A stretch of 64,000 bases of DNA from Haliotis cracherodii (taxonomy: Eukaryota): the NCBI RefSeq assembly GCF_022045235.1, contig NW_027266273.1, positions 28,706,001 to 28,770,000 of the forward strand. The letters run 5' to 3'. The notes beneath the pieces were generated by a model that saw only the letters and a program-made list of their open reading frames with translations, did not search any database and was not told where the DNA came from. The position numbers and the translations under genes are program-made. Positions 28,344 through 36,334 of this stretch are shown here, one piece after another; the stretch's first letter is position 1; each line of letters begins with the position of its first letter.

Positions 28344-30031
28344 CTTGAGTTATGATTATTCATGATATGACGCGAGATTAGGATCATAAAGAATTGAAGT
28401 CGTGGACAATATTCTGTTAAGTAAACACACTTTCTGTTGTACTGTTGACCATGACGCTATAACCAGTACTCACTGATGGAAAGTCCTGGGCCGCGTAAAC
28501 ACAGGTCGAATGTGTTATTCTAACGAAAATGTCTGAACCTTTTACATCACTGCCAGCAATCACTTTCCTTCATCATATACATCAGCAGGAATGAGAGTTT
28601 ATGAAAACGTAGATGCAGTGTGGATGTAATGATATTTCTCACGGAGCGTGTTATGATAATACTCTGTCAATAACAATGTAAAGGTCAAATATTGTTCTTG
28701 CCTGGACGTATTATGGTGAAATATAGATGTGTACAAGTGTACGCACTGGGACCAGACCTGAACAACGCTCTATTCATGTTGGAAAGTCAGTGAATGAGTG
28801 AGTGAGTGACTTTGGTTCAACAGTATTGCAGTTATATCCAGGCGTATATCCAGGCGTGTCAGCCGAAGGAATGCAGGCTGACCACTTGACGGACATAGTG
28901 TTGATATCCCCAGACAAATAATCAGAAATACAATCTGGTATCCGAAGGCACAATCAAACATTTCTTTTACGTTCAAATTAACGTATAAAATTGTGAGTGG
29001 TCGCTATACATTTGCAAACAATCTCAAAGCGTTTAAATATAATGTGTGGTACATCTTTCTGAAATCTACGTTTGTTCTCATTTAATAGTAATTGATTACA
29101 GTGTTAAACAGTGTTCGTCTCACATCCAGGTGTCTCTCTGTAAGGGTCAAGCACCTGCTATTCGTCACCAGTGAGCACTGATTTCAAAGACTTTGTTCAT
29201 GATATCAATATATCAAATCGAAAAGACATAACAAACAACATATGAAAAATAGTAATACTGTTTTAAATGTTAATAAGATGTCTTTCTGGTGTCTGAAATA
29301 CAAAATAATTAAGATTTTAAAATCCAATGTTGCAACGTCTTTGCATTGTAACAATTAAGTTTTGAAAACAATCCTACTCAACCCTGCTTTTGACACACCG
29401 GTACCGCCTGATGTCTATCTATCATCCGTCTGTGCTACATAGGGTCTCCATCATTAACACAAACAGCTTCTGTACTGAAGAACACGACATAAAACAAAAG
29501 AACTCGGAGACAAGAATATGTCCGACTCTACCCAGAAAAATGATGGCGTTCAAAGAATGTTTGCTGGTAAACGAGAACAATAAATACTTCCCACGTTCAT
29601 CATCTGCTCATCGTGTGTTCATCAGCTGGACGCGCCTCCCCGTGTCAAGTTATCGACAGACAAGCGAGTGTTTCTCTGCTTTTCGTGTCAGCGATAAATC
29701 TCGGAGATGTTATCTTCGTTCAAACTGTGCAGAACAAACATAAACAATAACACGCTCAATAACGCAAATAAACTTTATTCCAATAAAAGTTTACTGAGAC
29801 GACGAACGGCCCTGCGGCAGTGGATCAAACTTATCTACCATTGTTTGATGGACAACTCAGCATGTACACACCGGGTATGCAGTATTCAGCACAGAGAAAA
29901 TGTGGAATTCAAAATAAAGCAAGGAACACTTAGGTCAACACAGAGAAAGCGGCATGGAAAGAGTAACGGAATGTACACGGGACGTAAGTGCCCTGATGCC
30001 AGGATGTGGGAGAGTCTCGTAGTTAAAGGTT

Positions 30032-30391
30032 AACTGTCTGTATACACTTACATAAGACCCAACGTTGATGCAGCAACTGTCTGTATACACTTACATAAGA
30101 CCCAACGTTGATGCAGCAGTTGTCTGTATACACTTACATAAGACTCAACGCTGATGCAGCAACTGTCTGTATACACTTACATAAGACTCAACGCTGATGC
30201 AGCAACTGTCTGTATACACTTACATAAGACTCAACGCTGATGCAGCATCTGTCTGTATACACTTCCATAAGACTCAACGCTGATGCAGCATCTGTCTGTA
30301 TACACTTACATAAGACTCAACGTTGATGCAGCAACTGTCTGTATACACTTACATAAGACTCAATGTTGATGCAGCAACTGTCTGTATACAC
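30032..30391. repeat. Minisatellite, 43-bp unit, ~8 copies
   Basis: Unit aactgtctgtatacacttacataagactcaacgttgatgcagc. Confidence 0.97.
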
Positions 30392-30428
30392 GTACATACG
30401 ACAATGACATTTTATGCATTTTGATTTT

Positions 30429-30490
30429 GTATAGTGGTCCAATCCGTCGCCATGCCATGAAACGCTGGCGTAGGTTCGAGTCCCAGCTCC
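30429..30490 (+). mobile_element. tRNA-like SINE head fragment
   Basis: A-box-like gtatagtgg and B box ggttcgagtccc; no intact cloverleaf. Confidence 0.45.
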
Positions 30491-32717
30491 ACACAGTGTC
30501 TGGTTTGTCTGCACCATACACGGTACAGTGGTCGTGGAATGGTTAGCGACTCCCACCTCAAGCGAAGATCCGTCATTGAACTGAACTACTGCAACATTAA
30601 CACGCTGAACACATTCGCCAGGGCCGCGTTCTTTTAATATTCCAGTTGTTTCCTGTTAAGTAAAACACACTGACATTGCTAATGAGGGTGATTGCAACTA
30701 TCCCCCTGAAATGTACACTGGAAAATAATGGAAAGTCTTAAGCAGTTTTACATTTTAAGACCAAGCAAAACGTGAAAAAAAGCTAATACAAGAATATTAT
30801 TGGCAACCAAGATATTCCATAAATCGTGTACATAGAAGTTCTCGGAAACATGCGGAGCGATCAGACAGCTAATCTATAGCAGAGAGAGAAATCGATGAAC
30901 AACAACAACAGCATCGGTGACGTCGCCACCCATCACACACGCCACACTGTCCTCCCAGCGTCCAAGCTTTCACTTGCCCAGGTAAGTGATATCCTTCCCA
31001 CTCAGCAATGTACAATTTGGAACACCGTAACAATGAGAATATTGTCATAAATGTCAGATTTCAGTACAGGAAATTGAATTGCCTGTGAATCGACGATTGT
31101 AGAGATGGACGACAGTTGTATTTGACAATGTTATACGACACAGGTTAAGATGAAGTCACAGAGAGATACAAATCAAAGTCGAGGCATGTAAGGAAAACAC
31201 TCCCAATCCTTAATCAGGGGAAAGCTGTGCTGAAAGCAAATTTCATATTCTATAGCCACTAGATTGAAAGTTTTGTGTTTATGAATCACTATCAAAATAG
31301 AATAGGGGTGATACCACGTGTTCACGAAAACACATGCAAAGCCAAGTCAACTGTTAAATTGACAAAGGTCACATCAATACACACCATACAACATGATACA
31401 TCATGATACAACACCGAATGGAGATGTATCGGTACAATTGTGAACGGTTACAGTTGACAGAAGGCCTGGTGAACGGCTTGTACTCACACTGTATTTACTG
31501 CGCAGAGTGTCTAGTGAAAGTAAAACGCAAGAAACTGCAAATAAAAGGATGTTCGTAGATTGTTTAGGGATCAGTGTATAATCAAAAGGGACTTTTTTAT
31601 ACTATTCGCATAGTCATGAATGTGTTTTTGTAAATGTATATTTTTTTTATAAAAGAGACGAAATGTGAGCACATATTTTGATGCTGAATATTTAGCAGTG
31701 AAGGAAAGGGTGTTTACTCTTTCATAAATCAACAGCATTATAACAGAACCCCTCGGTAAATGATATCTGCTCAGTTCTAATGATATCATCATGTGTATAT
31801 GTGCTTACGCTCATTAAAAAAAGTCATAATTACTTTAAAGTTTAGATAGCAATACATGTGTCTCATCAAATATTTACCGAAGACCTATCGAATGTCACAC
31901 ACTATGACAAGGAGGCTCTGGCTGACAGTCAGCTGGTAGCCTGCACCGAATGTTTAACTATTTCAATTTCAAAAGTATTGCGGTACAATGAACAGATCCT
32001 TCTATCAATGCTGAGGAGAAAATATTGCATTAAACATAATCACTGTAGAAATAATGTGGTTTAAAGATTAACCGTGACATATTTTCTTCTTTCCTTCGTC
32101 TGAATAAAGAGAAACCTGGTTAGTCCGATCAACCCTCTTTGCAGTGAATCGTGCCGTGAACGTCTATTCTGAAAGAGGCATAAATAATACATTGTTTGTG
32201 GATAACTTCTTTAATAAGAAAACTAGCAGAAGCAGTCCACATTGGCCGCCGCAAGCCACCAATCAACAGAGATCAAGGCTATTTTATCCCATCCGCCTAC
32301 TATGAACTCATTAAGCAATAATCACTTATCCTGTTTAATTGGCTTCATGTCCCCTTGGCGTGCACCAACGTGTTCTCTGTCCAACGTGTTGTGACAGTAT
32401 TATCCTTCTATTGTCATTACTTACTCATGTTATCCCACTCATCTATGCAATTGTTGATACTGTTCATCCTCCACCTACTATATATTTTCTGTACAATGTC
32501 CCTCATTCAGTCCTGCTTGACACCGGTATAAGGATCCCTACCGAAACGTCGCTTTTTGCAGTATTAAAGAGGTTTTTATCCATAAATTGTGTCTACTTTG
32601 TCAATCGTCAACCTCTAAGTAATGCCTATCAATTCAAATAATATACTATTCGCTAATCATGATACGTGTTAAAACATACATATACAGGTCTATAGTCTTT
32701 GTAACGTTGTTCATCGG

Positions 32718-32865
32718 GTGAATGAGGACAGGAAGTAGTCTTGAGATGAACTGATGAAGGGGCACGTACAGCACTGAAATGTCGTTTACTCAATGAAAGG
32801 GCAAGAGTAGTCCTGAACGTCGTTTACTTGATTAAGTGGCAAAAGTAGCAACTGAAACGTCGTTA
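32718..32865 (+). ncRNA. Tandem array of four minimal hammerhead-ribozyme-like motifs (degenerate)
   Basis: ~37-40-nt units of (c/t)tgatga - stem II hairpin - gaaacgtc - gtt; each copy has some core changes. Confidence 0.5.
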
Positions 32866-32933
32866 CAAACAGTAAAGAAAGTAAGAGAGAGAGTTTATGG
32901 ATGTTAACTTGTTTATATCGAGGAACAAAGCAA

Positions 32934-32980
32934 ACATCACCTGATGAAGGAGTAACTTGATACTCCGACACGTTGTGTGT
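32934..32980 (+). ncRNA. Minimal type I hammerhead-ribozyme-like motif (GAAA>GACA)
   Basis: acatcac-CTGATGA-a-ggagta-acttga-tactcc-GACA-cgtt-gtgtgt. Stem II is a perfect 6 bp; stem I is aca(t)cac/gtgtgt. Confidence 0.6.
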
Positions 32981-34138
32981 CTCATAATAAAGAAGTTGAC
33001 TGCCACAAATTCTCTCTCTTCATGCCCATCAAGGACCTGGTACGTATTTGTGAGAACCACTCTCCTGAGAACTGTACCGTCCGGATTAATGAGGTTGCCC
33101 GATTAACGAGGTGTCTCGCGCACTTTCGTCTGTGTGTCGCGAAGTATGTTGACACACTTGTAAAACTGCGAAGAGAGTACATGCAGGTGAGTGTTTTTCA
33201 TCTTCGGCCTACGTTCACCCAACTGTAAGAACACGTCCCAGATTCGGTTATGTCACTCACGAATACTCTCAGAACCAAGTAATGTTCTTTGGCGTTGAAT
33301 ACATTTGGTGTTCAACATGCGATATGAGCATTTTGACAGTACTCAGTTTGGTGAAGTGTCTCAGATAGCAACACGTACAATATTTGAAACGGGTTCGTTA
33401 GGTGGAAATATCTGTTTATATCGATCCGACGAAATCAAGTTCATTTACCCAGCTTATGATTGTGACAGATTTCAAGGCAAGTATTTGTTATGGTGGAATA
33501 AGGCTACAGATTCAGCCCTGACTGTTTCGTCCGGCCATCCGGAAAGCTATTGTCGTGTGATGCAGAATCGATAGCCCTGGCCTTTTTCAGCTCTCATTTT
33601 CATTGTATCAATGTTAAGTGGTCGGCGTGATTGAGCATAGTTCATGCTTAATTTAATCTGGTTCACTTGAATCACATGACACAGATTTAGTCCCGGCATG
33701 TTTGATGTGAATCGCATGAAGACCAGTTCCTGACAGCTGGACTCGGGAGATCATGACGGGAAATCTACCTGGAGTGCGGGAAGTGAAGATGTTATCTCCG
33801 GAACTTCTAGCCTGACCTGATGCGGAATACATTAGCCAGATATTGCGATATAACATTCGTTGCCCGTCTATAGAATCAGTGCTTGATGCGCGTATGTCTT
33901 CGACATGGTTGTATCTGTTTTATGAGAAAGCAGCAGTTGTGAATAATTCATGTGGTGGTTCTTGATATGTGTATCATGTCTGTGTAGACATTGGGACTTT
34001 CAAATTCTGAATACATATTTCATGTCTAAGATTACGTTCCATGTTAGTTCAGCTTCTGTATCAGAAGGATGCTTTCATAGTGAGAATCTTCATTTATAGC
34101 GACAGTAAAACGTGAAACATTCTGATTACAAACTCCTT

Positions 34139-34659
34139 TATAGGTCTGGAATCCCAACATACATGAAGCGAGGTTTAGCACGGACTTGTATATTATATAG
34201 GTCTGGAATCCCAACATACATGAAGCGAGGTTTAGCGCGGACTTGTATATTATATAGGTCTGGAATCCCAACATACATGAAGCGAGGTTTAGCGCGGACT
34301 TGTATATTATATAGATCTGGAATCCCAACATACATGAAGCGAGGTTTAGCACGGACTTGTATATTATATAGGTCTGGAATCCCAACATACATGACGCGAG
34401 GTTTAGCGCGGACTTGTATATTATATAGATCTGGAATCCCAACATACATGAAGCGAGGTTTAGCACGGACTTGTATATTATATAGATCTGGAATCCCAAC
34501 ATACATGACGCGAGGTTTAGCACGGACTTGTATATTATATAGGTCTGGAATCCCAACATACATGAAGCGAGGTTTAGCACGGACTTGTATATTATATAGA
34601 TCTGGAATCCCAACATACATGAAGCGAGGTTTAGCACGGACTTGTATATTATATAGGTC
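34139..34659. repeat. Minisatellite, 57-bp unit, ~9 near-identical copies
   Basis: Unit ggtctggaatcccaacatacatgaagcgaggtttagcacggacttgtatattatata. Confidence 0.98.
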
Positions 34660-36334
34660 CGTGGGTTTAGGAAATAGTCCACAGAATGAGAAATATTTTC
34701 TACCTCAACAGTTCTGTCTGTGTAGTACAATACGATGAATATATTTTTACATAACGCAGGTGCTACGAGAAAGAGAGTTTGTGTAAATGTTGATTATGTT
34801 ACATAATGGAATTAACTCAATACAATCGTTCCCCGGTTTGGTATGGTTTGACATAATCTGGTAACGATAAAATATTGTATCTTTAATTTTGATTTTCTTT
34901 GAATGTCATCGAAAGGCATTATTCCGTAAGAATTACAGAGATCTGTTTTAGTGTATATTCCATTCAGCAACTAACTCCTTATAGAACCCGTATAAGGATA
35001 AGGAAGAGAAGTTATGGATGTCTACTGTCACACCATCACTACTGTTGACATGTACAGTTGTAAACTTAGAACCGGATGCCGTCCATATGTTGACAGGCTG
35101 TATATACTGTTCACAGACCGGAAATGTAAAACCATTTCTATATTCATGTGAAATCGCTGCTTAAAGCAGGGTCCATTGTACGATTCCGACTGTATCACGA
35201 GCTTGTGTGTATGAATCACCATCAAATAGTGATGATACCAGGCGAAAATTCATGTGAACGTATCTTGACCCACCGATGGCACTCGTCATAAACACATGCA
35301 AAGGCAAGTCAGTTACTCACCCCAAAAGGCACGGGAACAAATGGTACAAGTTAGAATAGGGAATTGCTTCGGACATCAGTTTTGTCACTGATGCGTCAAA
35401 TTAACAAATATCCTCTATCATTTTTGGAAAGCTTTATTGAGACCTTGTAATCCAGATCAGATAGAATAAGTCAGATGTTACTGATGTTCGCAAAAAGGTT
35501 CAGAAGCAGAAAAAAAACCACATCAACAATGACATTCAAGATCCGTGTAATACTGCACTTGATACATTAATGCTCGTATGACCTGTTTGACTCGATTAAA
35601 ATAACATCTGATATGGTCAGTATCACAGAATGCCGTCTCGCTTCCAGAAAGATGATTTTTTTTATCAATACAAAGTCAGCTTGGCATGCTTCAATGAAAC
35701 ACTACAATTGTGGATTTTCAAAGCAATTCGTGATGCAACTGCTTACATACGTGAGAGATAATATCTTAGATATATCCAGCAGATAGATCCTACTCTATCT
35801 CTCGTCATTAGCCGCGCAATCGGTTCAGTACATGCCTCAGGCTAGGCTTCAGTTTTTGTATTTAAAGAGTCGACAAACACCAAATTAGTCGATGGAAATT
35901 CACGATTTCACAATCAGCTGCCAGTGTGTAAAAGTCAAGTGTTTTCTGCCGATGAATCTTTATAGGATGTGAAGTTAGGTAACCAGGATACACATCCTCC
36001 GAGTCCTGGTTTCACAGCTTCTACCTGATTGAGCATTGAAGGGAATAGAAAATGCCCTTAAATGTAATCCGAAGCTGAAAAATCGAAGAGGGCAAATCTC
36101 TATCTTTTGTCAGCGTGTCATCTAGTGACGGGGTTGGAGAAGCCGCTCATTTGGCTGATTATTCCAACAGGATGCCTCGTTATTGGGGTTTACCTGACTT
36201 CTTGGGGTTAATCGACGTTATCACAAACCACCTTACAAGAAAGGCAGTGGCCTATTCAGTCTGATGGAAAACCGGAGGTTGTAAAATAATGAAATTACTG
36301 TGTGCCATGGAGTGGCACAACCATCTGCTTGACT

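Follow-up and report, generated by a model that had tools for sequence, protein, structure and literature searches.

Six motifs resembling the hammerhead ribozyme, four of them in tandem, lie together in a 64,000 nt stretch of the 1.18-Gb genome of the abalone Haliotis cracherodii (GCF_022045235.1, NW_027266273.1:28,706,001-28,770,000, forward strand; hereafter the window), and they raise the question of whether a ribozyme-sized unit has multiplied itself here or has been carried along by something else. An earlier note on this DNA treated all six motifs as one unit that might represent a minimal self-cleaving repeat or retrozyme family. A single unit or family found no support in our family alignments, which trace the motifs to three families of Penelope-like elements (PLEs), here called A, B and C. 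We consider it highly probable, as one joint reading, that the cluster consists of three adjacent, decayed PLE ends, each with its own minimal hammerhead ribozyme (HHR), and that the four-unit run is a minisatellite of local origin, with microhomology-guided copying slips at a 5′-inversion junction as its seed.

Three Penelope-like families at one site

A direct check of the sequence located all six hammerhead-like strings on the forward strand at the places originally given (Table 1), and the tandem copying of a ribozyme-sized unit was likewise confirmed, with units of 38-40 nt (~37-40 nt had been claimed) that contain little beyond the ribozyme. TRF reported a 38-nt period at 32773-32864, covering units 3-5 with a 75% match. 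Three near-copies of the 12-nt unit end lie within 85 nt in the window, whereas none of 60 dinucleotide-block shuffles reproduced this clustering, a lenient control as the 12-nt motif had been picked from the window itself. Some two dozen other minisatellite arrays, unrelated to this one and with periods ranging from 18 to 70 nt, were reported by TRF between 4165 and 62558 of the window.

Table 1 Features of the hammerhead cluster (window coordinates) and loci with a LINE next to a PLE hammerhead
Position	Strand	Feature	Basis
32182..32219	-	Probable tail arm (inverted, with an internal deletion) bounding the family A copy on its 5′ side	Inverted repeats I7 and I15; family by eye, not recovered by BLAST
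32216..32632	+	5′-truncated family A 3′ end: last endonuclease ORF codons, 3′ UTR/pLTR, hammerhead, tail	Family alignment
32517..32550 (core 32517-32523, triplet end 32550)	+	Motif 1, family A minimal HHR, U3-A8 variant, A9C, weakened stem II	Family A copies
32689..32711	-	Family C inverted tail arm (5′ inversion)	Inverted repeat I3 with 32856-32878; aligns to L050 tail
32712..32861	+	Motifs 2-5, a decayed tandem of four 38-40-nt units derived from the family C hammerhead	TRF, family alignment
~32712-32750	+	Unit 2 (motif 2), heavily decayed, without GAAA, without GUH	
Core 32751-32757, triplet end 32783	+	Unit 3	
End 32821	+	Unit 4, 5′ box decayed, GAAA minus one A	
Core 32828-32834, triplet end 32861	+	Unit 5	
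32862..32882	+	Family C tail, ended by the family B inverted arm	Family alignment
32883..32927	-	Family B inverted tail arm	Inverted repeat I1; layout shared by numerous family B loci
32937..33020	+	Family B PLE-type end with motif 6 (core 32941-32974, A14C) and tail	Family alignment
Core 32941-32947, triplet end 32974	+	Motif 6, family B; A14C in the window copy	
L014:527-536 and 1500-1509; L015; L239, L246, L258-L260		LINE beside PLE HHR	
L005, L006, L008, L011, L012, L013, L207		LINE beside PLE HHR, further loci	

The family A stretch (32216-32632) is 82-89% identical over ~420 nt to loci L007, L009, L010, L016 and L020, and a genome-wide search with 32500-32632 gave 1683 first-look candidates. 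A 594-aa open frame of this family matches the reverse transcriptase domain RVT_1 in Pfam (E=5e-11) and bears a weak likeness to telomerase reverse transcriptase (E=0.028); its C-terminus is GIY-YIG-like, as judged from atlas clusters at 0.96 in which the Pfam share is 12-20%, while a Pfam search of the ORF returned no GIY-YIG match. The hammerhead follows the ORF on the same strand in four of seven loci, in L186 ~200 nt past the stop codon. By these sequence features, family A is an endonuclease-bearing PLE. It also looks young, with many copies 95-99% identical over the endonuclease region and with open frames, two of which reach 535-594 aa.

Motif 6 belongs to family B (485 candidates genome-wide), in which an inverted tail often precedes the hammerhead, as it does in the window. 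Family C was reached through a pattern for the intact form of the tandem, which led to two solo copies and from these to 242 candidates; unit 5 and the next 21 nt align to the family C hammerhead and tail, and 32689-32711 is the same tail inverted. With the ORF link made for family A alone, we infer from the common tail and inversion layout that families B and C are PLEs as well. A fourth family, D, surfaced in later searches. In the window, family B interrupts the family C tail and the family A end lies 57 nt before the family C arm; six motifs are clustered because the ends of three families adjoin. Of 57 solo loci, 7 have the end of another family at a distance of up to 1.5 kb, several of them of up to 50 nt; set against a rough density estimate of 1-4%, PLE ends may be mildly clustered. 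Neighboring ends of different PLE families were seen in L008, L049, L051, L150, L004 and L015, and at 32632-32937 of the window.

At the family level, the motif is a genuine conserved PLE hammerhead, because solo copies from different families show covariation of both the 3-8 pair and stem II, as a consensus and covariation check proposed in the earlier note confirmed. We counted 7091 intact-core matches in the genome against 295 in the control, that is, ~6,800 intact-core minimal HHRs. With all other core letters fixed by the search expression, the 3-8 pair is U-A in 24/24 copies of family A, C-G in 12/14 of family B, C-G in 11/11 of family C and U-A in 8/10 of family D. The first five pairs of helix II are nearly always kept and differ between families; the helix opens with G10.1, with one extra base before it, and the 10.1-11.1 pair is G-U in 10 of 11 family C copies. 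The observation that stem II varies between the motifs and still mostly pairs therefore stands as regards pairing, but the variation is a difference between families and not one within a single family. Helix III is absent and positions 15.2-16.2 are palindromic in the parent families, in searches whose patterns demanded the palindrome, and the identification of minimal PLE-type hammerheads with a palindromic stem III remnant is borne out by alignment to dispersed families with intact cores. The available text on minimal HHRs in the pLTRs of metazoan PLEs (PMC4209133) describes the same lack of helix III, the palindromic 15.2-16.2, the extra base after position 9, the G10.1 pair, the U3-A8 variant, whose covariation is thus known for PLE hammerheads, and thousands of mostly solo copies with close opposite-strand pairs. 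In contrast to what is described there, the abalone families have a helix II of 5-6 bp and a helix I of only 2-4 bp, and 36-60-nt arrays made of the HHR alone are not described in that main text, the supplement of which may show short arrays.

The suggestion that the window copies carry core mutations and may be inactive holds for most of them, with complete core letters in one of the six (unit 3), but not for the TTGA-A start of motif 1, which is the normal family A core (24/24 copies); the damage in this copy is limited to A9C and a change that weakens stem II. Unit 3 lacks stem I in the window allele, and a full spacer before it would give just two stem I pairs. In a different DNA sample, a contig of single-copy depth covers 32615-33095 and carries six additional spacer letters before unit 3, and the array is therefore allelic, single-copy and decaying. 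From their sequences, self-cutting by the window copies appears unlikely and the locus is probably inert. A Rfam search over 30000-36000 gave no hammerhead among six weak matches at E<=10, and Rfam is uninformative for minimal HHRs. Contigs of three presumed-RNA runs cover the family A and B parts, not 32662-32853, and have no bearing on expression or cleavage. At 32265-32305 these contigs lack 39 nt of family A sequence, in two parts separated by two letters, and probably derive from a deleted family copy.

Short hammerhead arrays across the genome

The genome search for tandem arrays that the earlier note had proposed was productive. A pattern of two close HHRs gave 238 matches (28 in the control) and a core-blind pattern, which ignored the 5′ core, gave 104 (2 in the control); a stricter tandem pattern, limited to spacers of 0-6 nt and to an exact C3-G8 core, was too tight and had 0 matches genome-wide. 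From the matches listed (the best 100 of 238 and the best 100 of 104) we examined 57 loci, 47 of them from the core-blind pattern, and kept in the counts L175/L176, L177/L178 and L121/L122, which are duplicates of one event. A partly overlapping set comprises 42 family A and D duplications, drawn from the best 100 of 122 matches to a pattern without a cleavage-site requirement. The four-unit tandem of the window itself had only its self-match in a genome DNA search of a kind that can miss copies.

Among the matches listed, the arrays have periods of 24-63 nt and from 2 to ~72 copies, and all four families are represented. The longest hammerhead arrays among them are L181 (~72 x 60 nt, C6:30199907-30204163), L113 (36 x 41 nt), L116 (31 x 46 nt) and L222 (39 x 39 nt). 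Of the 42 duplications examined among the matches listed, 31 run out into the parent tail and 29 are preceded by an inverted tail; such an inverted tail was present in 29 of the 47 core-blind loci among the matches listed versus 11 of 30 solo copies, one strand having been mis-entered. Junctions vary between loci, several units take in DNA from the inversion tip, and many first copies are shorter than the second. In the window, the junction apparently has 3 nt of microhomology just past the cleavage site, at +3. Two family D arrays, L107 (C4:8680465) and L299 (C15:5032552), have two unit variants in common, of 38 nt and 40 nt, the proportions of which are reversed between them, each array with its own junction sequence beside its own inverted arm, and L299 shows small stutter repeats at the inversion tip.

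What was observed, then, is three families, a layout of inverted arm, tandem and tail, many parallel arrays with differing junctions and an indifference to the state of the core. The four-unit run is likely a minisatellite seeded by copying slips at the 5′-inversion junction, and likely grew and decayed as ordinary DNA. A PLE insertion truncated just upstream of the hammerhead would gain an inverted arm, and during or soon after insertion a polymerase, either the PLE reverse transcriptase or a host repair polymerase re-priming near the hairpin tip, may slip back over a few common bases and duplicate 24-63 nt. Some of these seeds would then expand by slippage or unequal exchange and decay in a minisatellite-prone genome. 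The hammerhead would be a passenger, often captured because many insertions stop just upstream of it.

The available text of Craig et al. (2021, PMC8557442) describes insertions of endonuclease-bearing PLEs that are 5′-truncated, often adjoin an inverted copy and occur in partial tandems; in contrast, the partial tandems of the abalone are only 24-63 nt long and sometimes reach at least 70 copies. Tandem repeats derived from transposable elements grow through local duplication, with a transposon piece being duplicated and then locally expanded, in the account available from Ahmed and Liang (2012, PMC3389668), compared with which the abalone arrays differ in having a seed tied to the PLE 5′-inversion junction and often including a ribozyme motif. 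The array is a minisatellite of this kind by the homology of its unit to the flanking element, by a locus-specific junction and by neutral decay, the last in the 5′ core box only.

Ribozyme activity and rival explanations

A contribution of ribozyme activity to amplification was not detectable in four tests. In the core-blind set, mostly intact repeated units were present in 24 of 47 loci among the matches listed, and of the arrays with at least five anchors, 6 of 18 among the matches listed are without an intact repeated unit (for example, 28 x 36, 20 x 44 and 24 x 35 nt). Tail segments free of HHRs form arrays as well (29 nt x 27.9, 32 nt x 43.1 and 47 nt x 10.3), with the top TRF row not confirming the array in two of five tail-control loci (L225 and L228); against this, an HHR anchor yielded more loci (47 among the matches listed) than a tail anchor did (~13, judged by eye), with unmatched search patterns. 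Among the matches listed, the 3′ breaks of the duplications fell at the cleavage site (-1/0) in 8 of 42 cases by script and 10 by eye, in loop II (-14 to -12) in 9 of 42 and beyond the cleavage site in 11 of 42, and breaks before the triplet numbered 23 of 42 by script and 18 by eye after five mutated copies. Finally, across 16 long arrays the 5′ core box varied about as much as base composition predicts (28 observed, 30.1 expected). From core state, HHR-free tails, junction positions and 5′ box variation, the ribozyme apparently is not the driver.

Over the whole core, nine "live" arrays varied less than expected (17 versus 25.5, p=0.008), with the low-variation signal confined to the 3′ box on which the search had been anchored (4 versus 10.9); core variation pooled over 16 arrays gave p=0.06, and the 11 arrays found without a core requirement gave p=0.33. 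We rejected an ungapped test of core conservation (p=0.003) for alignment and ascertainment bias, the gapped test having kept the signal of the anchored 3′ box only, and likewise a pile-up of 14/55 breaks at offset 0, since the anchor hid upstream breaks and several tails had been misread; that analysis was redone without the anchor. We read low core variation and cleavage-site junctions as bias and hot spots, and a contribution of cut RNA ends, or selection on some arrays, is possible.

If PLE RNA were cut by its ribozyme in vivo, a reverse transcriptase at the end of its template could jump, once or repeatedly, onto the 3′ end of the cut 5′ fragment and leave junctions at the cleavage site. 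The breaks at -1/0 would fit, some of them having only 0-1 nt of microhomology, as would family D junctions at which microhomology amounts to 0-2 nt and copying resumes at any of three points, and a first copy that is often shorter than the second, as template switching during insertion would produce. However, loop II, which is not a site of cutting, has a peak of equal size, the TC found before the usual resumption point also stands at the end of both peaks, several units carry inversion-tip DNA that is absent from any RNA 5′ end, and the window junction is not at the cleavage site, so that we regard this route as quite improbable. An ordinary minisatellite that resembles a hammerhead by chance might be expected in a window full of unrelated minisatellites and at a locus without a Rfam hammerhead match, but alignment assigns every motif to a dispersed family whose cores are intact, with C3-G8/U3-A8 covariation and compensatory stem II pairs between families; chance resemblance is refuted by these alignments and keeps a practically negligible probability.

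If the arrays were a minimal retrozyme family, their transcripts would self-cleave as permuted dimers into 36-49-nt monomers, which would form circles and undergo rolling-circle reverse transcription. In L116, L182 and L112, a complete permuted hammerhead can be drawn across neighboring units, with stems I/II/III of 3-4, 5-6 and 4-5 bp, folds predicted to lie within 2.4-4.5 kcal/mol of the minimum; some long arrays are mostly intact (51/71, 29/35 and 23/30 units), and the available text of a 2026 preprint (Li et al., 10.64898/2026.07.22.740005) classes such tandems as retrozymes with a consensus from 51 bp. Against this, most arrays among the matches listed finish in the parent tail at their own insertion and no dispersed, parent-free unit emerged, dead units amplify too, arrays joined at the cleavage site lack stem I, and the window tandem is single-copy. 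In addition, minimal HHRs are described in PMC4209133 as cutting weakly even as dimers or trimers, and eight of nine Xenopus dimers tested were uncut according to the preprint. Three families, a single-copy tandem and the amplification of dead units and HHR-free segments thus leave a minimal self-cleaving repeat or retrozyme family unsupported and, in our estimate, very unlikely.

The comparison with animal non-LTR retrozymes (PMC7229834; Li et al. 2026), as far as the available text describes them, points to a common origin from the PLE pLTR and to tandem units that each carry a type I HHR, and Li et al. also propose local tandem growth from a PLE end. The abalone arrays differ in that their 36-49-nt units are shorter than the shortest consensus of 51 bp, their HHR is minimal and not canonical, they stay within the parent insertion and contain many dead units, and the window array lacks the two intact units required there. 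The window units of 38-40 nt also fall below the published range of 51-972 bp (220-240 bp in coral); by one published non-LTR retrozyme criterion, arrays such as L113, L116, L181 and L182 would qualify and the window array would not. PLEs with minimal HHRs in tandem are mentioned for the axolotl (Fig. S7C of PMC7229834), a figure that may already show such arrays.

PLE ends as insertion sites and as natural multimers

A LINE that bears an RNase H domain (Pfam RNase_H, E=4.5e-17; 3910 3′-end matches) often inserts on the same strand as the PLE hammerhead, ~15-25 nt upstream of its core, and the two copies of the 9-10-bp target duplication have private variants in common. Of the first 30 LINE ends on contig C1, three abut a PLE pLTR, versus <0.1% expected from a rough density estimate; at these three junctions the HHR and tail are intact in two (by script) and the HHR is deleted in one (by eye). 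A second element, with a CAA tail, inserts likewise in L015, L208 and L049. The PLE pLTR is possibly a target hot spot for LINEs, and LINE read-through RNA would acquire a hammerhead behind its 3′ end; a literature search found no account of LINE insertion upstream of PLE hammerheads.

The minimal hammerheads of PLEs, their U3-A8 variant and the local growth of tandems at PLE ends have already been published, as far as the available text of PMC4209133 and 10.64898/2026.07.22.740005 goes, and a literature search that combined hammerhead, minisatellite and Penelope returned the 2026 preprint only, the supplements of which may hold short arrays. The locus is mostly ordinary transposon debris. The genome-wide set carries a warning, as pipelines that call any tandem of two HHRs a retrozyme will count passive minisatellites. 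We consider it unlikely that intact 36-49-nt arrays form complete permuted hammerheads across neighboring units, with unit-length RNAs or minicircles as their products, and that the cleavage-site peak records jumps of the reverse transcriptase onto ribozyme-cut ends; if true, this peak would be a genomic footprint of in vivo cutting by minimal hammerheads. L116, L182 and L112 are natural multimers for the question of whether a minimal PLE hammerhead can cut efficiently when its neighbor supplies stem III, and if they do, they would have the shortest units of any natural self-cleaving repeats described in the available texts, below the 51-bp consensus of the preprint.
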